Positions 4,800-62,885 are shown, counted from the whole stretch's first letter. The stretch is 63,035 nt of DNA, filler included, from Malassezia furfur (GCA_052055015.1; 41 parts of 41 records of this genome joined end to end with filler, not necessarily neighbours in it), one strand, 5' to 3'. Numbers and translations are program-made. Notes: generated by a model from the letters alone, not told the origin.

Positions 4800-6287
4800 C
4801 GCGGCGCGCGGCGCGGCCGTGCGCGGCTGGGCGCCCTGTGCAGCTGCACACGTCTGCGTGTTGGGCCGACTCCATCTATGCTTTGGCCAGCGGCCCGCCG
4901 CCGTGCGGGGTCAGTGTCCTACGCATCTCTGGGTACGTCGTGTGCTAATGCAGTGCGCAAGCCGCGCTTGTCTATGCCGCGCTGTGCCCCGACGCGCCGG
5001 CGCTTGTGCCCCGGCGTGCGGCGCTGCGCACGCTACGGCATCCCACGACGCGCGAAGTGCTCGACACGGCGCTCGTCCTCTTCTTCCCCCGGCCGCACTC
5101 GTACACCGGCGAGGATGTGCTGGAGCTGCACGTCCACGGCAGCCCTGCGGTGGTGCGCGACACGCTGCTGGCCATTGGCGCCGTGGACCCCGCGGCGCTG
5201 CGTCCGGCGCTGCCTGGCGAATTTACGCGGCGGGCGTTTGAGCAAGGGCGCATGGACCTCACCTCGTGCGAGGCGCTCGACGCGCTGCTGCGCGCCGAGA
5301 CGAGCACGCAGCGCCGCCTTGCGCTGCAGACGGGCGGCGGGCGGCAGGCGCAGCTGTACCATGCGCTGCGTGCGGAGCTGCTCGAGGCGATGGTGCGTGT
5401 CGAAGCGATGCTCGACTTTAGTGACGAGGACGGCATTGACGACGCGCTCTGGACGCCGGTGCGCGACACGGTCGACCGCGTGCGTGCGCAGATCCGGTGC
5501 GCGATGCCCGACGGCCGCCCGGCGGTGTCGGAGGCGATTGCGCACGGCACGCAGCTCGTGCTGTACGGCCGTCCGAACGCCGGCAAGTCGCTGCTGCTCA
5601 ACCGCCTCGTGCGGCGCGAGGCGGCGATCGTCTCGCCCGAGGCCGGCACCACGCGCGACGTCGTGCAGGCCGCGCTCGAGCTGCACGGCTTCCGTGTGCA
5701 GCTGAGCGACACCGCCGGGCTGCGGACCGGCGCGGCGGGCATCGAGCAGCAGGGCATCGCGCGGACCGAGGCGCACGTCCGCGACGCAGACCTGGCGCTG
5801 CTCGTGTGCGACGCGCGCGAGGCGTGCCGCGTGCTGGGCGGTGTGCCGCCGAGCGGCGCGACGCAGGTCTCGGCGCGGGGCGCGGACGCCCTGGGCCGCC
5901 TGCCCGGCGAAGAGCTGCTGCTGGTGGTGAACAAGATGGACACGGTGCGTGATGCGCCGGCGCCCGAGCCCGTCGACGACGGCGTGGCGTGTCATGTGTG
6001 GCAGGTGAGCGCGCTGCACGACACCGGCGTCGATGCGCTGCTGACGGACCTCGGTGCGCGGCTGGCGGCGCGGCATGCCGCCGACCTGCGGGAGCCGCCG
6101 CTCGTGACCGAGGCGCGGCATGCGCACCTGCTGGGCGGCGTGCTGGCCGCGCTCGATCGGTGCGCGGCGTGTGCGGAGGACGCGACGCTCGTGGCCGAGG
6201 AGCTGCGGCATGCCGCCTACCTCGTGGGCCAGATCACCGGCGAGACGCTCGGCGCGGACGAGGTGCTGGGCGCCATCTTTGCGCGGT
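4800..6287 (+). CDS. MSS1: Mitochondrial tRNA-modification GTPase Mss1/MnmE/GTPBP3 (one micro-intron; ends truncated)
   Basis: DSIYALASG..VSVLRISG, SYTGEDVLELHVHGS, PGEFTRRAF, G1 GRPNAGKS, G2 GTTRD, G3 DTAG, G4 NKMD, DEVLGAIF. Confidence 0.95.
4933..4953 (+). other. Spliceosomal micro-intron, 21 nt (GTACGTCGTGTGCTAATGCAG)
   Basis: Removal deletes an in-frame TAA and joins VLRISG to AQAALVY.. in the MnmE frame. Confidence 0.88.
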
Positions 6288-6387
6288 NNNNNNNNNNNNN
6301 NNNNNNNNNNNNNNNNNNNNNNNNNNNNNNNTTAATTAATTAANNNNNNNNNNNNNNNNNNNNNNNNNNNNNNNNNNNNNNNNNNNN

Positions 6388-7872
6388 TTGGTCGGCGTCG
6401 TGGGCGCCGGCGACGCGGCGCCGACGCGGCCCGACCAGGTGCTGGCGCGTGAGGCGGAGCCGCCGCTGCCCGTCGCGCCGATGCAGCGAGTGCTGCACGA
6501 GCGTGCGCAGACGGAGCATGGTGCGCTGCACACGGTGCTGAGCCCGGTGCTGCAGCGCGACCGCATGCTGGTCAAGATCCAGCACGCGCCGCACCAGAAC
6601 GTGGCGGAGTCGTTCAATGCGCTCGAGGCGCGGCGCTACGACCTGCGCTCGTTCCGGTTCACCGAGTACATGGTGGTGCTGCGCCCGCAGCGGCTCGAGC
6701 TGTGGAGCGAGGCGACGGTGCGCGGGCGTGTGCTGGGGCACACGGCGCGGCTGAAGCTGCGGCACGTGGTGCACCTCGAGCACGGCGCGACGGACGTGTC
6801 AATGTACAGCGAGATCGACGGGCTGTTTAGTGTGACGTGCCCCCGGCGGCTGCACAAGCAGTCGCGGACGACGCGGCAGCGGCTCTTCCGGCGGCACGGG
6901 AGCGTCATTTTGATCTTTGCGGCGCGCACGGCGTCGACCGCGAGCGACTGGATGTGGCTGCTGTACCGCGAGCTGGGCGGCATGGTGCCCGAGCATCTGT
7001 ATGTACATATCCCGAGTCTGTCGGTGCGTGTGCGCGTGCCGGTCCCGCCGCCGCCCGTGTACGGCGGGGTGGATGCGGCGCGCGGCGCGCCCGGGCGCTC
7101 TGCGGACGCCGCGGCGGAGTGGGCGGCGGCCGCGAGCCTGACGAGCGGCGAGGTGATCCGCAGCGTGGTGCGCCTCGTGCACGCGATGCCGAACTGGGCG
7201 CGCCTGTCGGAGCAGATGCTCGCGCAGGGCGTGCAGCCGAAGCTCGCGTGGCGCACCGGCGCGATGTACAACTGGGTGCCCGACGAGGCGACGTACGCGG
7301 GCCGCCCGCGCTTCTGGGCGGTGCTGGTGGGCCGCCTGTTTGCGTGGCCCGGGCGGCAGCCGGTGCTCGAGATGGTGCCGAGCAAGCACTACCCCACGAC
7401 CGCCAAGCACCCCAACGGGCGGCGCCTGAGCGAGCCGCCGGGGCTCGAGGGCGTCGTGTGGCGCGTGCGTGCGGTGAGCGGCGCGATGAGCCGCGTGTAC
7501 TTCACCACGCAGGAGAGCCGCATCTACATGACGCGCGTCGCGCGTGCGTTTGCGCCGGACGTGCACGACGGCGTGCCGCTCGACACGGCGCTCGAGACGC
7601 CGTCGATGACGCGCGCCGAGCGCCTCGCGCAGCACGCCGCGGCGTTCCACGCGCGCGAGCAGGCGCGGCAGCAGCTGCAGGTGCGCTACTGCGACGGCTT
7701 CATCGACCTGCGCGAGGTGTGTGCGATCCGGTGCGTCGGCACGGGCGTCACCGTGTCGACGGAGCTGACGCCGACCGCGCGCGAGATGGCCACGCACGTG
7801 TACGGCGAGTCGGCGCGCGCGGCGGCGGCCGTCGCCCCCGAGACGCACGCGCTGTTCGACTACGACGGGACA
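6388..7872 (+). CDS. SPO71: Spo71/Mug56-like PH-domain protein, internal fragment
   Basis: RDRMLVK, EYMVVLR..LELW, SMYSEIDG, ASDWMWLLYRELGG..LYVHIPSLSVRVRVP, KLAWR, HYPT..LSEPPGLEG, DGFIDL resemble fungal Spo71. Confidence 0.65.
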
Positions 7873-8154
7873 NNNNNNNNNNNNNNNNNNNNNNNNNNNN
7901 NNNNNNNNNNNNNNNNTTAATTAATTAANNNNNNNNNNNNNNNNNNNNNNNNNNNNNNNNNNNNNNNNNNNNCGCCGCTGCCGTCGCCGCAGCCGGGCGG
8001 CATCGACGAGGTCGAGCACATCTTTGGTGCGTAGCGACGGCGGCGCCCGCCGTGCCTCCACCCCCGGCCCACACCCTTGTACAGTGACGTAGCGAAAAAT
8101 CGGGCCGATTTCGGCGCCCCGCGCGCCGTGCGCTTCTCCACCCGGCGCAGCAAC

Positions 8155-9453
8155 ATGTACGATGCCGCGACGGTGCTCCTGCGCGAGTACTACCGCGTCA
8201 CCGGGTGGAATGAGCAGCAATCGTACGCACAGCTGATGCGCGCGGCGAGCCTGCTCGTCGACTTCGAGGTGCCGAACGGCGTGCTGCTCTCGTCTGCGTC
8301 GGCGCAGGTGCCGAGCCTGCTCTCCTCCGCACGGCTCCTGCTCGTGCCGCTGAGCGGCGCGCTGGGGTACGCGCACGTCGCGACCCCTGCCCCGTTCGAT
8401 ACCCAGTGCATCCGGCGCGCGGAGACGCGACTGTCGTGCGCGTCGCCGTTCCTCACGCCCGACCACCCCCCGGGCCTGCTGCCGTACCAAGGTGCCACGG
8501 CGCACGGGCTGTGGGACGCGCTGCGGCGGCGCGCGCCGCCGCGCGACGTGCTGCTGTACGGGTGCTTCCATGTGCCCACGACGTACGTCGAGGGCGTCGT
8601 TGCGATGCGCCTCGCGCCGCACTGGCAGCTGCTCATGACCGCGCTGTCGCACGCGCCGCGGTACCCTCTCATGCCGCTCGCCCGCCGCCTCGGGCTCGTG
8701 GCGCCCGGCGCGCCGCCGCTCCCGACGCTCGTTGCGCCGGGCGCGACCAACTTGCAGCTCACGCTCCAGATGCAGACCGAGCGGACCATGGCCGAATACA
8801 GCTACTCGGTGGACGACGCGCTGTGGGGAATGCGTGTGCTGCGCACGCTCACCGCGCCGACGATGCTGCAGCCCGGCACGCTGAGTGCGGGCGGCGAGGT
8901 GTTTGTGAGCGTCGCAGAGATGAGTGCTGGATGTACGTGTGTTGGCTGACCCAGTCTCGCTCGGGATGCGGTATGCGCAGCCGCCGATCTTCGATGCTCA
9001 GGGACGCCGCTTGAGCTATCCGGCGGTGTCGAGCGTGACGCTGAACCCCATGATGGGCCATGTGCGGTATGCGTACACGGCACAGACCGAGGAGGACCTG
9101 ACGCTGTGTGCGCGCTACGACCTAAATGTGTACTCCTACCTGTCGGACCTCACGCTCGGTGCCGAGTACTGCCTCGGCCCCCCGGCGGACGACGACGACG
9201 CACGGACCGCCGAGGCACCGACGGCGTCGCTGCGTGAGCAGCGGGGGGTTTGGAAGCCGGCGCCGGCGTCCACGACGGAGCTGTCGCTGCGCGAGGATAC
9301 ACTAGAGTGGCCAGCGGGGCCAGCGGGGTCTGCGGAGCCTGCGGCGCCTGCGGGGCCTGCCGGACCTGCGGGGCGCACCGAGGCGCCAGTGGGGCCCGCC
9401 GTGTCCGCGGTGAAGCCTGCGCTGGCCGCCAGAGCGCCGGCCGCCAGAGCGCC
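8155..9453 (+). CDS. MDM10: Mitochondrial outer-membrane beta-barrel Mdm10 (ERMES/SAM), one micro-intron, 3' truncated
   Basis: YYRVTGWNEQQSYAQL, LLYGCFHVP, EYSYSVDDALWGMRVL, LSAGGEVF, TLNPMMGHV, CARYDLNVYSYLSD. Confidence 0.9.
8933..8954 (+). other. Spliceosomal micro-intron, 22 nt (GTACGTGTGTTGGCTGACCCAG)
   Basis: Removal joins the two MDM10 ORFs in frame (EMSAG-FSLGMRY). Confidence 0.9.
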
Positions 9454-9553
9454 NNNNNNNNNNNNNNNNNNNNNNNNNNNNNNNNNNNNNNNNNNNNTTA
9501 ATTAATTAANNNNNNNNNNNNNNNNNNNNNNNNNNNNNNNNNNNNNNNNNNNN

Positions 9554-10532
9554 CCAGCGCATGGCCGACGCCAAGGCGCGGCGGCGCTCGGCCTCGGCGC
9601 GCCCGCTGGGCACCGCGCCGGGCATCTCGTCATCGACGTTCAGCTCGAGATCCGTGTAGTGTGCCTCGGCGCGCGGCACGAGGCCAACGCGCGCCACGAC
9701 GCCGTGCACCACGTCGCAGACACGCCCAAGCGGCTTGTGCACGAACGGCGGGAACCAGTGCACAAAGGCGAATGCTTCGCTCATGTCCCCGCGCGAGCCC
9801 ATCTCGTTCGGCTGGTAGAAGCGCAGGTACACCCACGACACGAGCCAGCCGAACTGGATCAGCAGGAAAGGCGACGTGAAGCCGAGCAAGCACATGACGT
9901 TCGACAGGCCGACGTACAGCATCGGCAGGTCATGGACGTGCATGCGGAAGCGCGAGCCAAGCAGCTGGATCTCGTGGTGCGGGATGAGCTGCGCCAGCGC
10001 CACGAGGAAGCCCGTCTGGAGCGCCTCGAGGCCGTGAAAGTGCGTGCCGAAGCTGGGGGTGAGCGGCGCGCGCAACGTACAGTGGGCGGTCGGTGCGCAG
10101 CACAACAAACAGAAGCACCGCGAGCACGACGGCGATCGCGTTCGACACGACGACCACGATGCCGGTGAAGCGCAGCAGCTCCACGGCGCCCCACTGCTGC
10201 TCGAGGTATTGCGCGGCGAGTGGCACAGCGACGATCGTCACGACAAACTCGGCGATGGATGTCTCACAAAATGCAGCGGTCAACAGCGTCCTGGGTCAGT
10301 CGAGCGCGCACACGCACCAGGGGTACCACGGCACCGCCCCGGGCACGGCGACCAGGTAGGGGTAACGCAGCGCCGAGCCCGGCGTGCCGGCGCTCGTGCC
10401 GAGCACATCGAGCGTGCGTAGCACGGCCAACACGCCCGAGAACGCAAGCACGAGCGCGACCAAGATCCGCGTCCCGAGCGGGAGCGCACGCGCGCGGTCC
10501 ACCGCGGCACGCACCGACGACTCCATCGGCAT
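9554..10532 (-). CDS. TMEM115/DUF1751 rhomboid-like Golgi membrane protein (two micro-introns, 3' truncated)
   Basis: After splicing: PWYPWTLLTAAFCE..YLEQQWGAVELLRF..QLIPHH..GWLVSWVYLRFYQ..RGDMSEAFAFVHWFP..AEAERRRALA. Confidence 0.85.
10053..10080 (-). other. Spliceosomal micro-intron, 28 nt (GTACGTTGCGCGCGCCGCTCACCCCCAG)
   Basis: Restores the frame TDRPL-FGTHFHGLE. Confidence 0.85.
10291..10317 (-). other. Spliceosomal micro-intron, 27 nt (GTGCGTGTGCGCGCTCGACTGACCCAG)
   Basis: Removes an in-frame TGA and yields the conserved YPWTLLTA motif. Confidence 0.85.
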
Positions 10533-12712: not shown

Positions 12713-13401
12713 GGCGTTCACCGATGGCACGGATCTAGTCACCTTTGACTCCGAGATACCCCCGCCCCCCCCAGCGCGCACGGCGTCGCGGCGCCTGGCG
12801 CTGCGGCCGCCTACGCTGCTCCCCACGCTGAGCACCGGTACGGCGCTCGCAAGCGAGATGAACAAGTTGCGTGCACAGTACCCCGACGCGTCATGGGAGG
12901 CCATCGAGGCGATGGTGCATGCGCGGCACCAGCGGCTGCGCGAGCAGCTGCTCGTTGGCGCGGGCGGCGATGCCGGTGGGTGGGGCAGCAGTGCGCAGGC
13001 GAGCGACGAGCGCGGTGCCCAAGGCGTGCGTGGGCGGCGTGCGGGCGGCGGCCTCGGTGTGCACCTGGGCGTGGCACGCGCGGCCAACATTGCGCCGTAC
13101 ACGCGGCACGCCCTTTCCCTGGAGGAGCGCATGGAGGCGTTTTTGGATCTGCACGGGCTGTACGCGAGCGAGGCGGTGCAGGCCACCGAGCGGTTTCTGC
13201 TCGCGCTCGAGGCGGAGCACTTTCGCGGGCTGGCCTACCTCGGCGTGGGTGCCGGCAAGCACAGCCGGGCGAAGAGCAGCAAGATCCAGACGCAGGTGCG
13301 CGCATTCCTGCACAGCTGGGGCTATGTACGTAACGCTACTGACGCAGCCCATGGCCGAGTACGACGGGGTGATTGTGTGCGATCCGTGTACGCATCTATA
13401 G
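12713..13401 (+). CDS. Smr/MutS2-domain protein, C-terminal part (one micro-intron)
   Basis: FLDLHGLYASEAV..LAYLGVGAGKHS..VRAFLHSWGY-PMAEYDGVIVCDPCTHL*. Confidence 0.85.
13326..13347 (+). other. Spliceosomal micro-intron, 22 nt (GTACGTAACGCTACTGACGCAG)
   Basis: Removal completes the Smr domain (GY-P..DGVIVCDP). Confidence 0.85.
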
Positions 13402-14287: not shown

Positions 14288-15315
14288 CAGTTTGCCGCCC
14301 AGCTCGTCACACATGCGCCCTCTGCACGCGCGCGCGCCGCCTCGTCGTCCGCGTGCGCGTGGGGGTCGAGCGGGGTGCGCTCGGCGCCGCGTGCCATGCA
14401 TGTGGCGAGCGTCGGCGCAACGCACGCGCGGTCGATCTGCGCGAGCGCCGTGCGGTCGTAGGTGTGCAGCGCGCGGAAGGTGCGCAGCGCCAGCACCAGA
14501 TCGGCCTCGACTGTGTCGGCGAGGGCGCTCGCCAACAACGTGGTGGCGTGCGTCGCGAGCGTCTGGGCCGCGGCATCGCGGCGCGTGCGCAGCGTCGCGA
14601 GGAGCGGCGCAGCCTCCGCGTCGTCGAGGCCGCCGAGGCGCTCGTCCGCCCAGACGTAGGTGCGCAGCGCGTCGCCGAGGCGCGTACGCAGGCTGTGGGT
14701 GGTGCGGTCGGCGTGCCACGGCACGCGCGGCGCCATAAGCGCCGTGTCGTCCGTCAATGCGCCGAGCGACACGGCGTCGAGTGCGGCGTCGAGCGCTTTG
14801 ACGTCGACGTGGGCCGCCTGCGTGCCGTCGAGCGTCGCCGGGACGCGCTGCAAGGCCGCATCCACGTCGAGGAGCGTGCGTAGCGTGTGCTGGGTGAGTC
14901 GCGCACGTACCTTGCGTCGGCGTGCGTCAGCGCTTGCCTGCTTTTCGCCGACGAGCTGCTCGACGATCTCGGCGAGCGTGGTGCGCAGGGTTGTGAGCGC
15001 GTGCTCGGCATGTGCGACGTCGGGGTGCTCCGTGAGCGAGTGGATCTGTGGTGCGTCCGCGCGCAGGCGCGACGCGAGCGCGACAAAGTCGCGGTACTTG
15101 GCGTGGATCACGTCGAGGAGCCGTGCGTGCAGTGCCTGGTTGTATGCGCGCAGCTCCTGGCGGATGGAGTGCACGTCCTGGCCGTACGCGCGCGAACACA
15201 GGAAGGCATCGACGTCGAACGTGCGCTGCGCCGTGGGCGAGAGCAGCGCGTCGCCCGCCGCGAGGGGGGCCGGCAGCGCGAGCGCCGGCACCGCAGGCGC
15301 GGCGTCGTGGTCCAT
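14288..15315 (-). CDS. COG2: Conserved oligomeric Golgi complex subunit 2-like, N-terminal part
   Basis: FDVDAFLCSR..IRQELRAY..LLDVIHAKYRDFVALASRL matches the COG2/Vps51-type N-terminal motif. Confidence 0.65.
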
Positions 15316-15351: not shown

Positions 15352-15755
15352 CTACGGAGCGGGGGCCCACAGCGGCACAAACGCCGCGTGGCAGGGGTCG
15401 ATCTTGCGGCCGATGTCGCTCACGGCGCCAAACAGGCGCGTCGCGACCCAGTACTCCCAGATGACGTGCCATGGGTAGGCGAGGCGCCAGTGAACGAGGT
15501 CGTGGTACATGTAGTAGTCGCGGCGGTCGTAGGCTGGGTCAGCAAACGAGACGTACCGACCGCCACGCGGGGGTTGACATAAATCAGGGGATGCACGGGC
15601 GTTGCGAGGCGGTGCATGTCGAGCGACGTTAACAGGCACTCGGACGCGCGGCACAAGACGCCCTGCCGGAAGCGCAGCGGCAGCTTGGCGGGCGCCTCGC
15701 CGTCGGGCGCTGTCGCATTGCGCGGCAGCCGCTCGATGGCCGGCACCGGCGCGTC
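15352..15755 (-). CDS. CAP59/CMT1-like (GT69) alpha-1,3-mannosyltransferase, C-terminal part (one micro-intron)
   Basis: LPLRFR..CRASECLLTSLDMH..IYVNPRVAV-AYD matches the CxASECxL..NPxVxVAY end of this family. Confidence 0.65.
15534..15556 (-). other. Spliceosomal micro-intron, 23 nt (GTACGTCTCGTTTGCTGACCCAG)
   Basis: Removal yields NPRVAVAYD in frame. Confidence 0.85.
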
Positions 15756-17568: not shown

Positions 17569-18888
17569 CTATGGCGCGCAGTGCTGGTAAAAGAGGAGGT
17601 ACGCGGGGCTCGGCGTGCCCTCGTTGCACAAGTCGCCCGACAGCACCTCGTCGGGGGGGATGGCGCGCGCATACGTGTCGTCGATGTGCACCCAGCCCGA
17701 GTCGTCCTGGCGCAGGACTGCGGCGGTGTAGTGTCCGCCGGTGGCCAGGCGCCCGTGGTGGTACACCACGCCAAACAGCGTGTACTCGGGCGGTGGGCCG
17801 GCCATGCGCAGCGGCGCACTCATCGTCGCAGGGTCGATCGTGAGGCGGTGGCCGTACGCGATGGGCTTGCAGCTCTTTTGCACACCGCCCACCTCGTCGT
17901 ACACGAAACGCTTCAACTGCAACACGAGGACGGGGGGGAGCATCTCGATGCACAGCTGCTTGGTGGCATCGACGAGCGCGCCGCGCCCCGGCGACCACAC
18001 GCCCGAGATCTCCTCGGGGACGGTCAGGTGGCGCAGCGCGTCCTCGAGCGTGCGCACCGACGGCGGCTGGATATCGAGCGGCAGCGTGCGGTACGGCTCG
18101 AGCACAATGCTCGTCTTGGCGCCGGGCACATGCAGCACGCTGCGCACCTTGCCGTCAAACATGCGCGAGATGGGCGACGCAGCGTCGCGCGTGCCGCCGG
18201 TGCGCGTGAGCGACGTCTTGCCCTTTTGGCCGACCTCGAGCCACTCGTCCTGCTCGGGGCTCGTGGGGCGCTGCACCTCGCGCGCCTCGACGTCCCCGTC
18301 GGCGTACGCGGCGGGCGGCGGCGCCTGCGGCGCGCTCGGCGTGGACCGGTGCGCCGCGCCGAGGCGGCGCTGCGCGCGCTGCTGCGCGAGCAGCACCTCG
18401 TCGTGCAGCGTGTTGAGCACCAGACTGAAGAACTCTTCTGCATCCTCCTGGTGCCCGAGGTGGAAGAGGTCGAAGCGCTTGTGCAGACGCATCGCATCGT
18501 ACACGTAGTCGGGCAGGATCGGGTCGACGTCCATCTCGAGCAGCGGCGTGTGCGCCGCGAGCGGGATCTCGGCATAGAAGCGGAAGCTGCGTCAGATGCG
18601 CACGTACATGGCCTCGAGTAGGGGGGTGGAGTTGGACAAGTCCTGCGGGAGCATCGCGTGCAGCTCCGTGAGGAAGTTGTACAGCGGGCGGCAGTACACA
18701 AGCATTTGCAAGATCTGCGTGAGTGGCGCAACGTACCACGCTCGCAAAGCACGAGTTTCCCTGGTTCACCAGGCCGACGGGCACGGTGAGCGGCGCCGCA
18801 AAGTGCGTGTGCGCCCCGTCGTACAGCTCGTCGAGGGTGCGTGCCGGCCGCGGCGGACGCGCGGCACGCGGCGCCCGCGTCGGCGACG
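17569..18888 (-). CDS. UBP3: Ubiquitin-specific protease Ubp3/USP10 catalytic domain (two micro-introns)
   Basis: Cys box GLVNQGNSCFASV-ILQML, GHQEDAEEFF, LVLQLKRF, His box VVYHHGRLATGGHYT, WVHIDD, AYLLFY. Confidence 0.93.
18587..18607 (-). other. Spliceosomal micro-intron, 21 nt (GTACGTGCGCATCTGACGCAG)
   Basis: Removes an in-frame TGA; TPLLEAI-FRFYAE. Confidence 0.88.
18715..18736 (-). other. Spliceosomal micro-intron, 22 nt (GTACGTTGCGCCACTCACGCAG)
   Basis: Removal restores the USP Cys box NSCFASV-ILQML. Confidence 0.92.
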
Positions 18889-19073
18889 NNNNNNNNNNNN
18901 NNNNNNNNNNNNNNNNNNNNNNNNNNNNNNNNTTAATTAATTAANNNNNNNNNNNNNNNNNNNNNNNNNNNNNNNNNNNNNNNNNNNNAACCCCGCGCGC
19001 CGCCCGCGCCCGCCGCGCGCGTCACGCGCCGCGCCTGTCGGCCACGTGGCCTCGCCTTGCGCTTTCCTCCACC

Positions 19074-20184
19074 ATGGCCGACGACGAGTCGTTTTCGGAG
19101 TCGGAGACGGGGCGCTCCGCCGTGTCGGCGCCCGCGTCGACCGCGTTCCGCAAGATGTCGCGGCTGCCGAGCGGCAAGGAGCGCACGCGTCTGCGCCAGT
19201 CGCGCAGCGCCACGTCCCTGCGCAACCCATATCTCGAGGACGCCGAGGCCATGCACGAGGACGACGACGAGGCCGAAGAGGCCACGCCCGCGCCCGCGCC
19301 CGCGCCCAAGTCGGTGCTGTCGGCGACCGCCGCGCCGCACACCCCGGCGTCGGTGCTCGCCGCGCAGCAGCAGGCGCCCGTGACCGCGTCGTCGAAGCGC
19401 ACGCGCGCCGGTCCGACGCTGGTGCCGACGGCGCCCAAGGTGCCCAAGACGAGCAGCGAGAAGGACGCGACGCCGCGCCTGATTGTCGTGCTGGAGCAGG
19501 CGTGCCTCGAGACATACAAGGTGTCGAGCGGCAGCGCGACGCACGCGCGCGGCAACAAGGACGCCGGCGAAAAGTACGCGCTGCTCAACTGCGACGACCA
19601 CCAAAAGGTGCTCGCCAAGATGGGCCGCGATATCGCCGAGGCGCGCCCGGACATCACGCACCAGTGCCTGCTCACGCTGCTCGACTCGCCGCTGAACAAG
19701 GCGGGACTGCTCCAGGTGTACATCCACACCTCCAAGGGCGTCCTGATCGAGGTCAACCCGCAGGTGCGCATCCCGCGCACCTTTAAGCGCTTCTCGGGCC
19801 TGATGGGTACGTGCCGTACTGACGCAGTGCAACTCCTGCACCGGCTGAGCATCCGCAGTGTCAAGGGCTCCGAAAAGCTCCTGCGCGTGATCAAGAACCC
19901 GGTCACGGACTACTTCCCGCCCAACACGCACAAAATCAGTACGTCCCAACGCTCACCCAGCGCTCTCGTACAACGCACCCGTGCAGCGCGTCTCGTCGTA
20001 CCTCGCGAGCGTGCCGCCGGACCGCAGCATCGCCGTGTTTGTCGGCGCGATGGCCCACGGCGAGGACAACTTCGCGGACGACGTCGTGGACGAAAAGATC
20101 TCCATCTCGGAGTACTCGCTGAGCGCCAGTGTCGCGTGCGGCAAGTTTTGCTGCAGCCTCGAGGACCTGTGGGGGATCGTATAG
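19074..20184 (+). CDS. EMG1: 18S rRNA pseudouridine methyltransferase Emg1/Nep1, complete, with long N-terminal extension and two micro-introns
   Basis: [70 protein letters not shown]. Confidence 0.96.
19807..19827 (+). other. Spliceosomal micro-intron, 21 nt, in-frame and stopless (GTACGTGCCGTACTGACGCAG)
   Basis: Interrupts the conserved FSGLM-VQLL motif with GTCRTDA if unspliced. Confidence 0.9.
19939..19960 (+). other. Spliceosomal micro-intron, 22 nt (GTACGTCCCAACGCTCACCCAG)
   Basis: Restores the frame HKI-TLSYNAPV. Confidence 0.92.
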
Positions 20185-20313: not shown

Positions 20314-20446
20314 CCGCCCAACACACACAAAATCAGTACGTCCGCATGGCTCACGCAGCGCTCTCGTACAACGCACCCGTGCAGCGCGTCTCGTCGTACC
20401 TCGCGAGCGTGCCGCCGGACCGCAGCATCGCCGTGTTTGTCGGCGC
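20314..20446 (+). repeat. EMG1: Second partial copy of EMG1 (19917-20048) carrying a different 23-nt intron (20336-20358, GTACGTCCGCATGGCTCACGCAG)
   Basis: Exonic sequence is essentially identical to the first copy; the intron interior differs in sequence and length. Confidence 0.9.
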
Positions 20447-26754: not shown

Positions 26755-26918
26755 CCGTCGAGCCCTACACGAGCTTCACCGACTGCTTCCGCAAGATGGT
26801 CGCCGAGGAGGGCTACGAGAGTCTCTACCGCGGCCTGCCCTTCTCGATGGGCCTTTCATTCCTGCTGACGCTCGGCCTGCTCCCAGAGCTGATTGACCTG
26901 TTTTCCCTCTTTTCATAG
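26755..26918 (+). CDS. Mitochondrial-carrier-superfamily protein, C-terminus
   Basis: PYTSFTDCFRKMVAEEGYESLYRGL is a carrier repeat motif. TAG at 26916-26918. Confidence 0.7.
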
Positions 26919-28202
26919 CGTACTCGGTAGCAGGCCACGCAGCGCCGCCAGCGCCGCGGGCGGATACACGAGCCACGCGTCCCACGCATCGAGCACGCCG
27001 AGCACGGGGCGCAGCACGGCGTCCGCCTTGACGCGCGACGCATACGCACGCACCACGTCGCCGAGGTGTGCAAAGATGCGTACGAGGTGCGGCTCGAACG
27101 CGTCGCGGTACCGCCAGGCATGCGGCACCCGCGCCGCACTATTGAACAAGATGTCGGACACGACGTAGAGCCGCGCGAGTTTCCGCGGGATCGGCGTGTG
27201 CGGCAGCACCAGCGACGCGGCGATCCGGGCGGCCACCGCATCCGCCGCGTACGCGTGATCAAGCGCCAGCACCATGCACCGCGCGATGCGCTCGCGCCGC
27301 GGCGTGAGTGTACGCAGCAGCGCACCAAGCCGTCGGTCGGCGAGCGGACTCAATGCCGCTTCCTTGGCCGTGCGGCCGGCCTCGGCCTCTTCGACCTCTT
27401 CCGAGTCGGTCGAGTACGGCGACGCCTCACCGTCGTCCACCGTCGGTACATCGGCGTACACGGGGCGCGTACGGCGCGAGCGCACGGGCGCGTCCGATCG
27501 ACGCGCCGGCGCTCGGCGGCGCACGATGCGGGGATGAAGAGGCAGAGGCACCGCCCGCGCCCACGACACGGCGAGCGCCGAGGCGCCCCAAGGCATGCCG
27601 TCGGCCGCCTCCAGGGCGGCCTCGGCGTCCGCGCGGCGCTGGAAGGCGACGAAGCCCACGTCGCGGTGCGGCAAGAGCTGCGTTAGCCAGGCACGTACCT
27701 TGACGGCCGCAATGTCGCCCCACTGTGCAAAGTAATCGCCGAGCGCCTCCTCCGAAACGCTGCGCGCCAGGCCACGCACGCAGAGATTCGTGGAGGCGGG
27801 GTCCGGCGCGGCCTGGCGAGGGCCGACGTCGGCGGAAGTGTCGGCGGCCTGCTGAATCTCGGAGAGGAGCTCGGCGAGGCCGCCCGGGCGCGACGCGGGG
27901 CGCGACACAGGGGGAGGGTGGTGGGTATCTTGGGCGGTCGCCGCTTGCGTGCGCACCGGTGTGGCCGCCGGCTTCGGGGGGACATAGGCTTGCCCTGCGT
28001 CAGTAGGCGCACCTACCGCCCTTGGCGACGAACTGCGTGCCGAGCACGCTGCGTCCGCGCGTCTCGTCCGTATCAAGATCGCGCAGGAGCGCATCGTAGG
28101 TCGCCTGCATCTCGGCATCGTCGCGCGCCTTGCACTCCGCCTCGGCTTCCTGCTGCCGCTCGAAGCGCGTCTTGGGCACGGGCCCATGCTGGAGCTGCTG
28201 CA
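26913..28202 (-). CDS. U2 snRNP-associated SR140/U2SURP homologue (RRM + CID; two micro-introns)
   Basis: KTRFERQQEAEA.. N-terminus; RRM STNLCVRGL..GFVAFQRRADAE; CID RRERIARCMVLALDH..IPRKLARLYVVSDILFNSA..HAWRYR. Confidence 0.82.
   Translation of the reverse strand, partial: CSSSSMGPCPRRASSGSRKPRRSARRATMPRCRRPTMRSCAILIRTRRADAACSARSSSPRAVGAPTDAGQAYVPPKPAATPVRTQAATAQDTHHPPPVSRPASRPGGLAELLSEIQQAADTSADVGPRQAAPDPASTNLCVRGLARSVSEEALGDYFAQWGDIAAVKVRAWLTQLLPHRDVGFVAFQRRADAEAALEAADGMPWGASALAVSWARAVPLPLHPRIVRRRAPARRSDAPVRSRRTRPVYADVPTVDDGEASPYSTDSEEVEEAEAGRTAKEAALSPLADRRLGALLRTLTPRRERIARCMVLALDHAYAADAVAARIAASLVLPHTPIPRKLARLYVVSDILFNSAARVPHAWRYRDAFEPHLVRIFAHLGDVVRAYASRVKADAVLRPVLGVLDAWDAWLVYPPAALAALRGLLPSTL
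27678..27698 (-). other. Spliceosomal micro-intron, 21 nt, in-frame and stopless (GTACGTGCCTGGCTAACGCAG)
   Basis: Consensus donor and CTAAC-GCAG end; phase 0 after IAAVK in the RRM. Confidence 0.8.
27995..28016 (-). other. Spliceosomal micro-intron, 22 nt (GTAGGTGCGCCTACTGACGCAG)
   Basis: Joins TQFVAKG-GQAYVPP, bringing the SR140-like N-terminus into frame. Confidence 0.8.
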
Positions 28203-28302: not shown

Positions 28303-29747
28303 CGCAGCCCGAGCAGCGCTCGCCGCGGAACCCGATGGGCAACCCGCTGCGCTACTCGCACGGCAAGATGATGCCCGCCGGCACCCCGGAGCCGAACCGG
28401 CTGAGCAGTGCCCAGATGCAGAACCTGGCCGCGAACCGCAATCTGCGCCCGAGCAGCGAAATGCTGCCCATGGGCCAGCAAGGTACCCCCGAGAGTACGT
28501 TGGACGCCGCACTGACCGTTAGCTGAGGTGATTGACAAGTGGTTCGAGGACCTGCAGAACTACGAGGCGACGCTCGAGGAGATGGCCGCCGCGTCGCTCG
28601 ACCAGAACTTTAAGGAGGAGCTGAGCGCCATCGAGCAGTGGTTCCGCGTGCTGAGCGAGGCGGAGCGCACCGCGGCGCTGTACAGTCTGCTGCAGGAGTC
28701 GACGCAGGTGCAGATCCGCTTCTTCATCACCGTGCTCCAGCAGATGGCGCGCAACGACCCCGTCGGCGCCTTCCTCTCGCCGAACCAGGCGAACAGCGCC
28801 GTGGGCGAGCAGCTCGAGGCCAAGATGGCCTCGCTCGGGATCAAGACGCCCACCGCGGGCGTCGCCGCCTCGCCGAGCACGCGCGGCTTCCAGCGGCAGA
28901 GCACGGGCTTCCTGTCGCCGAGCAGCGCCTCGCTGTACGCCGGCAGCCCCGACGTGTCGGCGGCGCTCGCCGCACAGCGCAGCAAGATGAAGAGCAACCG
29001 CACCTCGGCGCCCGGCACGCTCCCGATGGAGTCGCCCATGAGCTACACGGGCGGCAAACTCGACCACGTCCAGGAGAAGCCGTCGGCGCCGCGCGAGCGC
29101 CCGCGCTCCTCGGACCACACCCCGCTGTCGCGCGCGCAGCGGCAGAGCGGTCCGATCGACGATGCGCTCTCGCCGCTCGGCATGGGCGGCAGCTGGGCGA
29201 GCATGGTCAACACGCCCATCATGTCGATGCTCGACGAGAACGCGCCGTCGGGCGGTGCCCCGGCGCCGGGCGACACCAACGCCAAGCTCGACGCGACGGC
29301 CGCGCAGCTCGCCCAGCTTGCCCAGCAGTACGGCGGCGACACGGACGCTGCGCTGCGTGCGCGCCGCGCGGCTGGCGGCCAGCCATCGGTGCAGGGCGTG
29401 CTGAGCGGCATGTACGACACCAACAGCCCGCCGGCGGCCAACTGGCAGGGCGCCGGCAGCCCTCCGACGAATGTGACGAGTCCCCAGTTTAACAACTTTT
29501 CGATTCCTATGAGCCCCAACACCCTCGCCGGGCTGCAGAGCCCCTCGGGCGGGATGGCGAACCCGGCCAACCTGCAAATGATGAACACGATGGCCGCCAT
29601 GGGCGGGCTGAACAACATGAACTCGACGCAACTTCTCGCACTCCAGCAGCAGATTCTGCAGCAGCAGCAGCAGAACCTGCAGAACTACACGCCAACCGCC
29701 CAGCGCATGGGCACGCGCGGCCCCGGGCGTCCGGGCGCGCCGGGCGC
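28303..29747 (+). CDS. VTS1: RNA-binding protein Vts1/Smaug, N-terminal part (one micro-intron)
   Basis: IDKWFEDLQNYEATLEEMAAASLDQNFKEELSAIEQWFRVLSEAERTAALYSLLQ..QIRFF and GSWASMVNTP. Confidence 0.88.
28495..28522 (+). other. Spliceosomal micro-intron, 28 nt (GTACGTTGGACGCCGCACTGACCGTTAG)
   Basis: Joins GTPE-TEVIDKWF in frame. Confidence 0.85.
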
Positions 29748-42080: not shown

Positions 42081-42997
42081 GGACCGTGGGCGGCACCTGC
42101 GCCGCGTCGCCCGGCGCCGCGTGCCGTGCGCCCGCTGCACTCGGCGCGCTGGGAAAAGGTTGTGGTCAAGTGGGAGGTGCCGCGCAAGGTGCTGCACGCG
42201 AGCATTGGGTTCGTGGTGCTGGCGCTGTATGGCCTCAACGTGGACCTGGACCGGATTGTACGCGTGCTGAGCTACATGCTGGTGTCGATCGCGTCGCTGG
42301 ACTTGCTGCGTCTCAATGTGCCGGCGTTTGAGCGCGCGTACGAGGCGGTGGTGGGTGCGCTGATGCGCGATGGCGAGCGGGTACGTGGATGGGCTGACCG
42401 TAGGAGCGCGTCAACGGCGTGGTGTGGTACCTGGTGGGGGTGCTGGTGAGCCTGCGCCTGTTCCCCGAGGATATTGCGTGCGTGAGCATCATGATCCTGT
42501 CGTGGTGCGATCCGTGTGCGTCGACGTTTGGGCGACTGTACGGGCGGTATACACCATCGATGCCTGCGCCGCTGTTTGCGCAGCGCAAGTCGCTCGCGGG
42601 CTTCTTGGCCGCGGTGCTGGCCGGCTCGCTGACCACCTACTTGTTCTGGGGCACGAGCCTGGCGCGGCGCGGCGAGCGTGCGTCGGGTCTCTCGTGGACG
42701 CCCGGCGGGACGGCGACGTTTGGCACGCGCCAGGCGCCCGGTGTGTTCCACACGGGCTGGACGGGCCTGCGCGGCGGGTTTGTGGCGCACGGCGATGCGT
42801 CGCTGTGGGCGCGCGCGACGTCCGTGGGCGGCGGTGCGCCGGCGGTGCCCGCGTGGCTGCTGTACGTCGCCGCGGGCCTGGTGGCCGGGGTGACCGAGTC
42901 GCTGGACATGGGCGGCATCGACGACAATCTCTTCATCCCCGTGCTCAGCGGGCTTGGGATCTGGGCAACACTATGGGTGTGGGGCCTCTTTGTGTAG
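42081..42997 (+). CDS. DGK1: CTP-dependent diacylglycerol kinase Dgk1 (one micro-intron; 5' truncated)
   Basis: WEVPRKVLHASIGF, LMRDGERE-RVNGVVWYL, LSWCDPCASTFGRLYG, KSLAGF, IDDNL. Confidence 0.92.
42381..42403 (+). other. Spliceosomal micro-intron, 23 nt (GTACGTGGATGGGCTGACCGTAG)
   Basis: Joins the two DGK1 ORFs in frame. Confidence 0.9.
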
Positions 42998-43096: not shown

Positions 43097-43470
43097 CTAG
43101 TGTGCGCGGCGGGCTTGTGCGTTGCGGCCGTGGACGCGCGCGTAGAGCATGCCGTGGAAGCGGCGCGTCTGGTGCACCTGGCGCCAGACGTACACGGCCA
43201 GCGCTGCGACGACCACGATGACGTTCGCGAAGACAAACTGGCTGTACGCACGCACCTCGGCGCCAATAAACTTGCCGCAGGCGCTCCAGCCGTGGAGGGC
43301 AGGCGCGCTGGCGTTCGCGACGCACTGCACCGCCTGGCGGTTGTTGTACGGGCGGCAGTAAGGGTAGGCGAGCTGGGTCAGGGCGCGCGCACACGTACGT
43401 CGTCGGCCGGGCACGGCATGCACGCGCTCACCGGCGTGCACGTGTACGCCGGCGCCACCGAAGAGGTACG
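43097..43470 (-). CDS. Small Cys-rich single-TM protein (JTB-like), one micro-intron; start unresolved
   Basis: YTCTPVSACMPCPADD-LAYPYCRPYNNRQAVQC..GWSACGKFIGAE..FVFANVIVVVAALAVYVWRQ. Confidence 0.55.
43373..43398 (-). other. Spliceosomal micro-intron, 26 nt (GTACGTGTGCGCGCGCCCTGACCCAG)
   Basis: Brings the CxPC exon into frame with YPYC. Confidence 0.8.
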
Positions 43471-43601
43471 TGGCGTGCTCACCCAGTATTACGACCTCGT
43501 CNNNNNNNNNNNNNNNNNNNNNNNNNNNNNNNNNNNNNNNNNNNNTTAATTAATTAANNNNNNNNNNNNNNNNNNNNNNNNNNNNNNNNNNNNNNNNNNN
43601 N

Positions 43602-45234: not shown

Positions 45235-46539
45235 ATGACGTCGCGTATGTGAGGAAGCGCTAACGCAGCTGCGATTACGCTCAATCTGAGCAGCGCAGAG
45301 CGCCAATCGTTTGGGCATCTGTTTACGCTTGCGGATCCGAGCCAGAGCGGCGTGATTACCGGCGATGCGGCCGTGAAGTTTTTTGAGGGGTTCAAGCTGC
45401 CCACACTGACGCTCGGTCAAATCTGGTCGATTGCGGACAGTAGTAATAATGGGTTCCTGACGCCGAATGCGTTTGCGATTGCGCTGCGCCTAATTGCGCG
45501 TGCGCAGCGCGGCGAGAGCGTCGGTGAGTCCGAGGTGCAAATCCCCGGCGCGCCGCCCGTCTACGAGGGCGCTGGGGCGCCGGCCGCGACCGGGGTGTCT
45601 GCGGCAGCCTCCGAGGTGTCAATCACGCCGGAGGACAAGGCGCGCTTCTCGCGCATCTTTGCGACGGTTGGCCCGACGAACGGCCTGCTGAGCGGCGACC
45701 AGGCCAAGGAGGTGTTTATGAAGTCCAAGCTGCCCTATTCCAGGCTGGGCGCGATTTGGAACCTGGCCGACACCAAGGCCCGTGGCGCCCTGGACCTGAC
45801 CGACTTTGTGATCGGCATGTATTACATCCAGGGCTCAATGAACGGCACGATCCCGTCCATTCCGACGGCGCTCCCGGCCGGCTTGTACGAGCAGGCCTCG
45901 GGTGCGCCGCCGCCGCCGCTGCAGCCGCAGCCGACCGGCACCGACCATTTGGCGGCGGCGTTCAACCAGCCGCCGGTGGCTGCCAAGACGGCGCCCTCGG
46001 TGGCGCCGAGCGTGGCACCGAGCGCGCCTAGCCTCGCCGGTGCGTCGCGCTCGAGCAGCTACACCTCGGTGCGCGCGATGAACGACTGGGCGATTACGCC
46101 GCAGGAGAAGGCCAAGTTTGACTCGTTCTTTGACTCGCTCGACACGGGCAAGACGGGCGCGATCGAGGGCCCGATGGCCGTGCCCTTCTTTATGCAGAGC
46201 GGCCTGGACGAGCCGACGCTTGCGCATGTGTGGGACCTGTCGGACCTTACGCAGAATGGGCAGCTGTCGCGCGACGAGTTTGCGCTTGCGATGCGCTTGA
46301 TCAATGACAAGCTCGAGGGCAAGGCGTTGCCCGATCAGCTCCCTGCGTCCTACCTGCCGCCGAGCATGCGCACGCGCGACCTGCCTGAGGCCGTCGATGT
46401 GAAGCAGACCGAAACGCAGAAGGAGCTGTTCTCGCTGCTCGACACGGACGCACCTGTAATGTCGCCCTCGGTCGCCGCCTCGGCGTTTGGCGGCGGCGCG
46501 CGCGAAATGCCGACCCGGAGTGCCGCGGCGCCTGCGGCG
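45235..46539 (+). CDS. EDE1: Endocytic scaffold Ede1/Eps15, three EH domains (one micro-intron; 3' truncated)
   Basis: Three EH repeats: LGQIWSIAD, LGAIWNLAD, LAHVWDLSD. ATG at 45235. Confidence 0.92.
45245..45268 (+). other. Spliceosomal micro-intron, 24 nt (GTATGTGAGGAAGCGCTAACGCAG)
   Basis: Removes in-frame stops and links the ATG (MTSP-AITLNL) to EH1. Confidence 0.88.
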
Positions 46540-55697: not shown

Positions 55698-57086
55698 CGC
55701 CCACGCGCGCGCCGCCGAGCATCCCCGCCGACGCGCCGTACGCACGCACGCTGCAGCTGCTCGGCGCGCTGCGTGCGCTCGCGGACGAGGGCGTGTACGG
55801 CGACGGGCCGTTTGCGCTGGACGACGCGACGTTCCTGAACAACAAGCTCACGGCGAAGCTCGCGCAGCAGCTCGGCGAGCCGCTGCTCGTCGCGAGCCAG
55901 TGCCTCCCCGCGTGGGCGCACGAGCTGCCGCACGCGTTTGCGTTCCTGTTCTCGTTCGCGACGCGCTTCGCCTACTTCCAGGCGACGGCGCTCGGCCACG
56001 CGCGCCTGCTGCAGGCGTACCTGAAGCGCGACGGCGCCGCGTCCGACGACGTGCTCCAGATGCTCGCGCAGGTGCCGCGGCAAAAGGTGCGCATCGCACG
56101 CGACGCGCTGCTGCCGTCGGCCGTCAAGGTGCTCGAGCTGTACGCCGCGGGGCCGCACGTCCTCGAGGTCGATTACCGCGACGAGGTCGGCTCGGGCCTC
56201 GGCCCGACGCTCGAGTTCTACGCACTCGTGTCGCAGGCGCTCGCACGCACGGACCTCGGCATGTGGCGCGCCGCGCCGCACGACGCGCCGCACGCCGACG
56301 CGCGCCACGGCCTGTACCCGCGCGCAGACGCCGAGCGCTCGGCGAAGGCCACGGCGCTCTTCACGACGCTCGGGCAGCTCGTCGCCAAGGCGCTGCTCGA
56401 CGCGCGCCTGATCGACGTGCCGCTGCACCCCGTGTTCTGGCGCCAGCTGCTCGGCCAGCGCGTCGCGGACACGGCGGCGCTCGCACACATCGACCCCGCC
56501 GTCGCGCGGTCGCTCGCGGCGCTGCAGGCGCTGCCCTCGGCCGAGCTCGACGCGCTCGAACTCGCGTACGCACTGCCCAGCACCGACGCGCTGCTGCGCG
56601 CCGACACGCCGCTCGTGACGCACGCAAACGTCGACGCGTACGTGCGCGACGTCGCGCACGCGACGCTCGCGATCGACGGCGCGCTCGCCGCGTTCCGCAC
56701 GGGCTTTGCACACGTGATGCCTCTGGCGCACCTCGGCGTGTTCTCCGCGACCGAGCTCGGGCACCTCGTCGCGCACCGCGACGAGGACTGGAGCGAGGCG
56801 GCGCTGCGCCGCGCGCTCGTGCCCGACCACGGGTTCAGTAGCGAGAGCCGCGAGTTTGGCGACCTCGTCGCGATCCTCGCGGCGTACTCGGAGGACGAGC
56901 GGCGCGCGTTTGTGCAGTGGCTCACCGGCGCGCCGCGCCTGCCGATCGGCGGGTTCGGCGCGCTGCAGCCGCCGCTCACGGTCGTGCGCCGCGACCACGA
57001 GCCGCCGCTCGCGCCGGACGACTACCTGCCGAGCGTGATGACGTGCGTCAACTACCTCAAGCTCCCGCGCTACTCGAGCCGCGACA
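55698..57086 (+). CDS. UFD4: HECT E3 ubiquitin ligase Ufd4/TRIP12-like, C-terminal HECT domain
   Basis: NNKLTAKL, DEVGSGLGPTLEFY, LGQLVAKALLDAR, FVQWLTGAPRLPIGG, DDYLPSVMTCVNYLKLP (catalytic Cys). Confidence 0.93.
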
Positions 57087-58575: not shown

Positions 58576-58675
58576 NNNNNNNNNNNNNNNNNNNNNNNNN
58601 NNNNNNNNNNNNNNNNNNNTTAATTAATTAANNNNNNNNNNNNNNNNNNNNNNNNNNNNNNNNNNNNNNNNNNNN

Positions 58676-60063: not shown

Positions 60064-60163
60064 NNNNNNNNNNNNNNNNNNNNNNNNNNNNNNNNNNNNN
60101 NNNNNNNTTAATTAATTAANNNNNNNNNNNNNNNNNNNNNNNNNNNNNNNNNNNNNNNNNNNN

Positions 60164-61551: not shown

Positions 61552-61651
61552 NNNNNNNNNNNNNNNNNNNNNNNNNNNNNNNNNNNNNNNNNNNNTTAAT
61601 TAATTAANNNNNNNNNNNNNNNNNNNNNNNNNNNNNNNNNNNNNNNNNNNN

Positions 61652-62885
61652 CAAATCGTCTCGCCGACCTCGACGACGTACGCACCGAGCGCCGGTGCGG
61701 CGCCGCCCGTGGTGCCGGCGGCCGTGCCGCCCGGCGGCGTGGTGCCGTCACCGCACAAGGTGGTCGCACAGGCCACAGCGCCGCCCGCCTCGTCGACGGT
61801 GCCGATGCCCGCATCGTCGCAACGCAAGGTGACGCTGAACGACTTCAACTTCCTCGCGGTGCTCGGCAAGGGCAACTTCGGCAAGGTGATGCTCGCCGAG
61901 GAGAAGACGACGGGCACGCTGTATGCCATCAAGGTGCTCAAGAAGGAGTTTATCATCGAGAACGACGAGATCGACAGCACGCGCTCGGAGAAGCGCGTGT
62001 TTTTGACCGCCGCGCGCGAGCAGCACCCGTTCCTGCTGGGCCTGCACTCGTGCTTCCAGACCGAGACGCGCGTTTACTTCGTGATGGAGTACGTCAGCGG
62101 CGGCGACCTCATGCTGCACATCCAGCGCGAGCAGTTCAACTTGCACCGTGCCAAGTTTTATGCGGCCGAGGTGCTGCTTGCGTTGGAGTACTTCCACAAG
62201 CACGGCATCATCTACCGCGACCTCAAGCTCGACAACATTATGCTCACGCTCGATGGCCACATCAAGATTGCCGACTACGGCCTCTGCAAGGAGGGCATGT
62301 GGTACGGCAACACCACCTCGACCTTCTGCGGCACGCCCGAGTTCATGGCGCCCGAGATTCTGCTCGAGCAGCGCTACGGCCGTGCAGTGGACTGGTGGGC
62401 ATTTGGTATTCTGCTCTACGAGATGCTCCTGGGCCAGGCGCCGTTCCGTGGCGACGACGAGGACGAGATCTTTGACGCGATCCTCGAGGACGAGCCGCTG
62501 TACCCGATCCAGATGCCGCGCGAGTCGGTGTCGCTGCTGCAGCGCCTGCTCACGCGCGACCCTGCGCGGCGCCTGGGCGCAGGCCCCAACGACGCAGACG
62601 AGGTCAAGGCGCACCCCTTCTTCCGCGACGTCAACTGGGACGACCTACTCCACAAGCGTGTCCCGCCGCCGTTCTGCCCGACGCTCAAGAACGCGAGCGA
62701 TACCACGTGGTTCGACACGGAGGTACGTTGTCTCTCTACTTACCCGCTAGTTCACCAGCGAAAAACCGACGCTGACGCCGGTGCACAGCGTGTTCTCGGC
62801 CAAGGACCAGGCCGAGTTCCGCGACTTCTCCTGGTACGTCCCCCGCACGCACTGACCACGCAGGACCGCCCCGCACGTGCTGTAG
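61652..62885 (+). CDS. PKC1: Protein kinase C (Pkc1), kinase domain and C-terminal tail (two micro-introns)
   Basis: [76 protein letters not shown]. The true frame is not in the ORF track. Confidence 0.95.
62723..62750 (+). other. Spliceosomal micro-intron, 28 nt (GTACGTTGTCTCTCTACTTACCCGCTAG)
   Basis: Restores the AGC tail FDTE-FTSEKP. Confidence 0.9.
62834..62863 (+). other. Spliceosomal micro-intron, 30 nt (GTACGTCCCCCGCACGCACTGACCACGCAG)
   Basis: Consensus donor, branch and acceptor. Spliced end FSWTAPHVL*; unspliced end FSWYVPRTH*. Confidence 0.75.

Follow-up and report, generated by a model that had tools for sequence, protein, structure and literature searches.

Paramecium introns measure about 25 base pairs (bp) (PMC5014332, excerpt) and myxobolid introns have a median of 22-27 bp (PMC13644364, excerpt). 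The introduction to a 2026 study of the shortest introns in animals lists three exceptional groups below 30 bp, namely ciliates, Microsporidia and Dicyemida; Malassezia is absent from the excerpted text (PMC13644364). The introns of this yeast genus have been called "very short" in a review (PMC7426719). The curated annotation of M. sympodialis holds 5,350 introns with a mean length of 30 bp, 99% of them supported by RNA-seq, and was made with mappers that allowed introns of 10-2000 bp (PMC5389616, excerpt with Table 2). In M. restricta the mean and median are 37 and 30 bp (PMC9241646, excerpt with Table 1), and its annotation used intron length minima of 20 and 15 (PMC6473144). Here we analyze tiny introns in a stretch of Malassezia furfur DNA (GCA_052055015.1) of 63,035 bases, which consists of 41 joined contigs and which we call the window. 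We conclude that these introns are very probably ordinary major-type (U2-dependent) GT-AG spliceosomal introns that have shrunk to the minimum their signals allow. We observe their anatomy, their excess over chance, their restriction to the coding strand and the gap-free homology that appears when they are removed.

Results

To define candidate introns we used a strict motif, GT[AG]NGT-N(3-14)-YTNAY-N(1-4)-YAG, with a total length of at most 32 nucleotides (nt). The motif has 22 matches in the 41 contigs. These correspond to 21 distinct places, since one match is nested in another. In 500 first-order Markov simulations of the same contigs the expectation is only 1.22 matches, with a standard deviation of 1.15 and a maximum of 7. 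A looser pattern, GTACGT-N(5-24)-YAG, yields 30 matches compared to 7.53 +/- 3.19 in shuffled sequences. Of the 21, the one at 20336-20358 sits at the end of a contig and duplicates a Nep1 intron. Hence, we count 20 independent sites, and these are distributed over 15 genes. The original prediction, made from the sequence before this analysis, had listed 19 introns in 14 genes. Its short GT-AG introns are there, but the count was too low. It had also described the introns as spread throughout the window. Many genes do carry them, yet the window is not one locus but a set of unlinked gene fragments on 41 contigs.

We judged reading frames by a codon-usage log-odds segmentation of all 41 contigs. 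Each of the 20 sites is on the same strand as the coding segments that flank it. Their lengths leave a remainder of 0, 1 or 2 after division by three in 9, 8 and 3 cases, so that 11 of the 20 are not multiples of three. Retention would introduce an in-frame stop codon at eight sites, shift the frame at another eight and leave an open frame without a stop at the remaining four. An earlier scan of all GT..AG pairs that join open frames rich in GC at third codon positions returned thousands of pairs. It was abandoned because several frames stay open in DNA with a GC content of 67%.

Coding frames in a poor draft could also be interrupted by errors of assembly or sequencing or by pseudogene lesions. 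The assembly is indeed fragmented into contigs of about 1.4 kb, 41 of them in the window, and it contains at least one duplication that looks like a misjoin. But errors would not share a single three-part motif, a single strand and a floor of 21 nt, nor would they fall where other species have annotated introns. We regard this explanation as hardly credible.

The introns are strikingly uniform in their anatomy. Six are 21 nt long, five are 22 nt and two are 23 nt, followed by single introns of 24, 26 and 27 nt, three of 28 nt and one of 30 nt (median 22 nt, n = 20). The predicted range of 21-30 nt is thus correct. Four introns of 21 nt, three of 23 nt and a median of 23 nt had been reported as well, and these values have to be replaced by six, two and 22. 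All 20 introns begin with GT and end with AG, as the search demanded. The donor is GTACGT in 17 introns, one more than previously reported, and this hexamer dominates as claimed; GTGCGT, GTAGGT and GTATGT occur once each. The branch motif is CTGAC in 11 introns, CTCAC in five, CTAAC in two, and CTAAT and CTTAC in one each. Since the donor and branch consensus were search criteria, their frequencies among the matches are not independent evidence.

The distances between the signals are similarly constrained. Between donor and branch motif lie 6 nt in six introns, 7 nt in another six and 8-12 nt in the other eight; a spacer shorter than 6 nt does not occur. The presumed branch A sits at intron position 16-22. 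It is followed by five bases in 15 introns, six in one, seven in two and eight in two. Counted from the 3' end it is therefore the sixth to ninth base, and the sixth in 15 of the 20, in agreement with the prediction of a branch A 6-9 nt from the end and no polypyrimidine tract. The bases between the branch A and the AG number only three to six. They are mostly C (53 of 71) and do not form a tract; at none of the 20 sites is there a pyrimidine tract between branch and acceptor, nor the room for one. Such a tract is typical of animals and is not required in fungi.

The shortest introns follow from adding up these parts. Six bases of donor, six of spacer, five of branch motif and four beyond it give a floor of 21 nt, and six introns lie exactly on this floor. 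An intron of this length has 15 nt before the presumed branch A and 5 nt after it. Independent candidates shorter than 21 nt do not occur among the matches in the window: those of 17-20 nt are nested in longer ones or lie antisense.

Homology shows what happens to the proteins when the segments are removed. Seven sites could be aligned to full-length homologues, two each in genes for Nep1, a ubiquitin hydrolase (USP) and U2SURP and one in COG2. At all seven the alignment is gap-free upon removal. In the Nep1/Emg1 gene, a 21-nt phase 1 intron that is in frame and free of stops (19807-19827, + strand) is followed by a 22-nt phase 1 intron (19939-19960, +). The spliced product aligns without gaps to proteins of M. 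yamatoensis, M. vespertilionis, M. cuniculi, Malassezia sp. CBS 17886, Ustilago, Meira and Cryptococcus. Four of the five named Malassezia Nep1 proteins are spliced as here, and the fifth, from M. psittaci, is garbled. The USP10-like ubiquitin hydrolase gene contains a 21-nt phase 2 intron (18587-18607, -), which would bring in an in-frame stop if retained, and a 22-nt phase 0 intron (18715-18736, -), which splits the Cys-box region and would shift the frame. With both introns removed, the protein is gap-free against all four named Malassezia proteins and against others. Among the National Center for Biotechnology Information (NCBI) proteins, those of M. yamatoensis, M. vespertilionis, M. cuniculi and M. 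pachydermatis share these splice positions in Nep1 or USP.

The U2SURP/SR140-like gene has a 21-nt phase 0 intron in its RRM, again in frame and stop-free (27678-27698, -), and a 22-nt phase 1 intron with the donor GTAGGT (27995-28016, -). The U2SURP-like NCBI protein of M. brasiliensis, which is 90% identical, lacks exactly the seven codons of the first intron. Across the junction of the second the spliced product matches the proteins of M. brasiliensis and M. japonica. The M. brasiliensis protein is thus spliced at both sites found in the window. In COG2, a full-length homologue of 754 amino acids with 87% identity lacks exactly the seven codons of a 21-nt, phase 0, in-frame and stop-free intron (14890-14910, -). 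The seven residues are also missing from six of the seven other aligned homologues, while the seventh (P0260) breaks off at the junction.

Could some of the segments whose length is a multiple of three be retained instead, at least partly, and encode seven residues? Four of them (14890-14910, 19807-19827, 27678-27698 and 43466-43486) keep the frame and contain no stop, which leaves the sequence by itself indecisive. Naive open reading frame (ORF) calls from relatives read through such segments (P0002, P0121, P0124), and for the RRM a Pfam match alone is indecisive. The homologues speak against retention. Three of the four segments are among the seven aligned sites (43466-43486 lies outside this set), and for these three annotated full-length homologues do without exactly the seven residues, as do those of distant genera. 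Furthermore, all four segments carry the full donor-branch-acceptor motif, which is unexpected for seven coding codons. A relative with 64% protein identity reads through the RRM site 27678-27698 with seven residues, the same length as here, and its extra residues match only where the donor or the branch-acceptor motif encodes them. Retention is thus a very improbable reading.

Protein profiles extend the argument to three more sites. At the 22-nt phase 1 intron in MDM10 (8933-8954, +), which contains a stop if retained, the upstream exon matches the profile up to position 239 and the downstream exon from position 241; the codon split by the intron corresponds to position 240. Here profile continuity supports the intron in full. 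It does so partially for TrmE and for the tail of a PKC-type kinase. The 21-nt phase 2 intron in the TrmE/MSS1-type GTPase gene (4933-4953, +) has the strict motif and an in-frame stop if retained. The TrmE_N profile starts at position 27-30 on residue 8-9 of the downstream exon, and the upstream exon of 43 amino acids has no Pfam match of its own. The 28-nt phase 0 intron in the C-terminal tail of the kinase (62723-62750, +) also has the strict motif. The alignment of exon 1 to PKN/PKC structures extends to the final residue of the exon. The first residue of exon 2 falls on profile position 14 of Pkinase_C, where the match begins (E 8e-6), and this exon also matches, weakly, residues 313-340 of PKC beta II (E 1.2). 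Scans of single small exons against Pfam (USP exons 1 and 2, TrmE exon 1 and the exons of a Dgk1-like gene) returned no matches at E values up to 1.

The original prediction had stated that removal restores conserved sequence. This is the case for Nep1, USP and the PKC tail, and also for U2SURP, COG2 and MDM10. It had named Dgk1 as a further example, a label that we treat as a lead only: the gene scores 0.94 to a CTP_transf_1 cluster in the atlas and has no Pfam match. This CTP_transf_1/Dgk1-like gene carries a 23-nt phase 0 intron with a TAG acceptor, the strict motif and a frame change (42381-42403, +).

The other sites are recognized by similar features. A DUF1751/TMEM115-like membrane protein gene contains two phase 2 introns with the strict motif. 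The frame changes exactly at the 28-nt intron (10053-10080, -); the 27-nt intron (10291-10317, -), with the donor GTGCGT, has an in-frame stop and coding sequence on both sides. Between the two lies an exon that matches DUF1751 positions 8-76. At the end of the PKC-type kinase a 30-nt phase 2 intron (62834-62863, +) with the strict motif and an in-frame stop interrupts the hydrophobic motif. Its removal leaves a last exon of seven codons, which starts with a split tryptophan codon spanning the junction. The strict motif coincides with a change of frame at a 23-nt phase 1 intron in the C-terminal part of an unnamed gene (15534-15556, -) and, between coding segments, at a 28-nt phase 1 intron with a TAG acceptor in a Vts1-like gene (28495-28522, +). 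Reading through the latter leads to a stop 10 codons downstream. A motif and a frame change hint more tentatively at a 22-nt phase 0 intron in a Smr-domain gene, before a last exon of 17 codons (13326-13347, +); the Smr profile reaches position 51 of 77 in the exon upstream (E 0.0014).

Three sites lie close to the beginning of a gene or to a contig end. A 24-nt phase 1 intron with the donor GTATGT, the strict motif and an in-frame stop follows a first exon of only three codons (45245-45268, +), and downstream of it lies a long exon with an EH domain. A 26-nt phase 0 intron with the strict motif follows a first exon of seven codons (43373-43398, -). An ATG is located 21 nt upstream of its donor, and the coding segment downstream scores 59. 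The last site is a 21-nt candidate, in frame and stop-free, that lies 15 nt from a contig end (43466-43486, +); it has the strict motif, and its coding score of 19.7 is weak.

The latter two sites form an unusual arrangement. Two perfect intron motifs on opposite strands stand about 70 nt apart (43373-43486). The candidate starts of the two divergent genes overlap in a GCATGC palindrome near 43415-43420. If both genes are real, then the 5' ends of their transcripts must overlap.

We find no unexplained frame break that would suggest a longer coding intron in the segmentation of the 41 contigs, where introns of more than a few hundred bases are invisible at this contig size. This is in line with the earlier statement that the window holds no convincing long coding intron. 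A codon-usage filter let through 13 sites in the window, of which 10 belong to the 21 motif places and three are longer.

Several further candidates did not withstand inspection. The looser scan proposed 38510-38536 (+), which was rejected since it is antisense to an eIF4G frame that fills the contig. An apparent frame change on contig 22 (35266-35405) turned out to be one continuous reading frame when the sequence was read, and two coding segments on contig 28 belong to the same continuous reading frame of low complexity.

Only one candidate exceeds 30 nt. It lies on contig 10 (16211-16252, -), about 45 nt upstream of a start codon, and consists of 42 nt that start with the donor GTACGT, contain the branch motif CTTAC and end in AAG. 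It may be an intron in a 5' untranslated region.

The introns vary between copies and between relatives. On contig 12, positions 20317-20446 repeat positions 19917-20048, an exon-intron-exon unit of Nep1, over 133 bases with 96% identity. The copy contains the 23-nt version (20336-20358, +) of the 22-nt intron at 19939-19960. Four of the five differences, including the sole insertion or deletion, fall into the 22/23-nt intron, and one falls into about 110 nt of exon. The duplicate is probably an allelic or homeologous copy that the assembler misjoined. In a relative, P0002 has eight extra residues at the second Nep1 site, from which it follows that the intron is 24 nt long there, compared to 22 nt here.

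Metagenome loci of relatives were scanned with the motif, and the lengths that follow are not validated by reading frame or homology. In L001, from the M. sympodialis group (GC content 65%), matches are mostly 24-28 nt long. In the more distant relatives L002 (GC content 56%) and L003 (GC content 60%) they range from 23 to 58 nt and from 23 to 51 nt, respectively. The codon-usage filter yielded nothing for L002 and L003 and was not used for the comparison of species. These lengths hint that the lineage of the window lies at the short end of the genus.

Database proteins show what such introns do to annotation. Many stop or read through at these sites in Nep1, U2SURP and COG2. The NCBI Nep1 protein of M. 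psittaci (P0003) is out of frame between the two Nep1 intron positions, evidently because the tiny introns were mis-called. The expectation that gene predictors would miscall these genes is borne out by this protein and by the naive ORF calls that read through introns divisible by three.

The 41 contigs measure 1,384-1,504 bases each and are ordered by falling length. They are joined by linkers of the form N44-TTAATTAATTAA-N44 (for example 1505-1604 and 18889-18988), and hence genes that are adjacent in the window are not neighbors in the genome. The GC content of the contigs is 61-69%. According to the segmentation and Pfam scans, nearly every contig carries fragments of ordinary eukaryotic housekeeping genes, among them ALG6/8, TrmE, MDM10, Tim44, COG2, USP, Nep1, a Sec7 protein, eIF4G, Nic96, HECT, CLU, CLP1 and PKC. 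Many coding frames span their entire contig without interruption. The closest named proteins all come from Malassezia: M. brasiliensis with 90% identity for the U2SURP-like protein, and M. psittaci and M. yamatoensis with 80% for Nep1 and 71% for USP. Further database proteins match at 91-99% identity. The sequence thus belongs to a GC-rich Malassezia near M. brasiliensis, and the genus named in the original prediction is correct.

Two observations concern the contigs themselves. Positions 1-591 and 55724-56314 (contigs 0 and 36, in opposite orientation) share 591 bases of a HECT-type coding region with 90% identity. Paralogy, a hybrid or heterozygous genome, or mixed strains could account for this. 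Another contig (43602-45021, -) is a single open frame for a low-complexity repeat protein rich in Ala, Gly and Glu, with ends that resemble coiled coils.

Discussion

We propose that each intron is little more than a chain of adjoining signals: 6 nt of donor, 6-12 nt of spacer, the 5-nt CTNAC branch motif, usually two bases, and AG. Selection on length would have left nothing but the signals and a spacer no shorter than 6 nt. Splicing would proceed in the ordinary two steps, with U1 and later U6 reading the donor and U2 pairing with the branch motif. The acceptor would simply be the first AG past the branch, chosen by proximity alone and without a pyrimidine tract, because nothing else is in reach. 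Strong, nearly invariant signals would compensate for the intron sequence that is absent. The A of CTNAC as branch nucleotide and the order in which the small nuclear ribonucleoproteins bind are suppositions made from the sequence.

Alternatively, as the original prediction had suggested, the introns are real but the early assembly of the spliceosome has been remodelled. Donor and branch motif are only 6-12 nt apart, and in the geometry of the yeast or human A complex U1 and U2 would not fit on such an intron together. The lack of a pyrimidine tract would make acceptor recognition of the U2AF type dispensable. The tight geometry on which this idea depends does hold (branch A at position 16-22 with 5-8 nt after it). 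There are also precedents: for the tiny introns of Stentor, altered regions of branching factors and the avoidance of a steric clash have both been conjectured (PMC9505925, excerpt), and human short introns can use SPF45 in place of U2AF (10.1101/784868, excerpt).

One gene in the window may bear on this alternative. The U2SURP/SR140-like gene (26916-28202, -), itself interrupted by two tiny introns, encodes an RRM and a CID but no SURP domain, as judged by a Pfam scan and an alignment gap. The Malassezia orthologues share this composition, and the orthologues of Violaceomyces and Tilletia have the SURP domain. A U2SURP that lacks SURP may matter for the handling of tiny introns. However, the loss is one observation on one protein and may be unrelated. 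An Rfam scan of the window found no RNA family, small nuclear RNAs included, and the window contains no other spliceosomal gene. The signals themselves are fully canonical. The argument from geometry also applies to every lineage with introns below 30 nt, such as ciliates, microsporidia and myxozoans, and is not special to Malassezia. We therefore think a remodelled assembly unlikely. Equally doubtful is the more far-reaching proposal that the furfur/brasiliensis clade has reached a hard physical floor of 21 nt, below the published values of 30 bp and among the shortest of free-living fungi, together with a remodelled early spliceosome (for instance a SURP-less U2SURP, or acceptor choice without pyrimidine tract or U2AF).

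Returning to ordinary major-type introns, some points weigh against this conclusion as well. That the segments are spliced from RNA is something we infer from sequence, homology and the literature. Half of the 20 sites are recognized by motif, frame change and codon usage. The list based on the motif is partly circular, and the sole independent check on it is that the segmentation reveals no other unexplained frame break. With the branch A just 3 nt ahead of the AG the spacing is very tight, and the branch nucleotide itself is presumed. The least certain site is 43466-43486, which is near the end of its contig and whose position clashes with that of a gene on the opposite strand.

The introns matter first of all for annotation. 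Malassezia genes are mis-translated by bacterial-style ORF callers and by gene callers whose minimum intron length exceeds about 20 nt. Hence, the annotation of draft and metagenomic Malassezia sequences should permit introns down to 21 nt. Beyond annotation, the modular layout of 6 + 6 + 5 + 4 nt provides a clean lower bound for a functional intron with signals of full strength. Malassezia is a free-growing and transformable yeast (PMC5654937, excerpt). If the hard floor and the remodelled spliceosome were true, a culturable, transformable yeast would become a model for the splicing of minimal introns.

Relation to known systems

Within the genus the phenomenon is already known and annotated, and our finding mainly confirms and sharpens it. 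Public NCBI proteins of other Malassezia are spliced at identical positions of 21-22 nt in Nep1, USP and U2SURP. The original prediction had presented the introns as perhaps only partly new, and said that published annotations with the same mode of 21-23 nt in the genus would remove the novelty. Judged by this standard the introns are not new: the same sites are spliced in published proteins of several species, next to the mean of 30 bp in M. sympodialis. What differs is the degree. In the window the median is 22 nt and six of the 20 introns lie at the floor of 21 nt, compared to a published mean or median of 30. Our literature search found no analysis of the spacing between donor, branch and acceptor in Malassezia and no statement of a 21-nt floor.

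Well-conserved donor and branch motifs and a short gap between branch and acceptor are also features of U12-type introns. The minor-class donor consensus is RTATCC. None of the 20 donors is of this type, and the sites are not minor introns.

Ciliates, microsporidia, dicyemids and myxozoans have introns near 20-30 nt as well, and they share the puzzle of a sharply looped lariat (PMC9505925, excerpt). These are other lineages. Myxobolids have reduced splice-site motifs (PMC13644364, excerpt), whereas the motifs in the window are very strong.

The arrangement of branch and acceptor has counterparts in intron-poor eukaryotes. The branch motif is separated from the AG by 2 nt in Yarrowia lipolytica and by 4 nt in Trichomonas and Giardia (Irimia and Roy 2008; PMC2483917, excerpt). 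A fixed and tiny distance is also described for some Candida (PMC2483917, excerpt). The window shows the same strong branch motif almost fixed to the AG, at 2 nt in 15 of the 20 introns. Yet the introns of Trichomonas and Yarrowia have medians of about 100-200 nt (PMC2483917, excerpt), whereas in the window the part between donor and branch has collapsed too.

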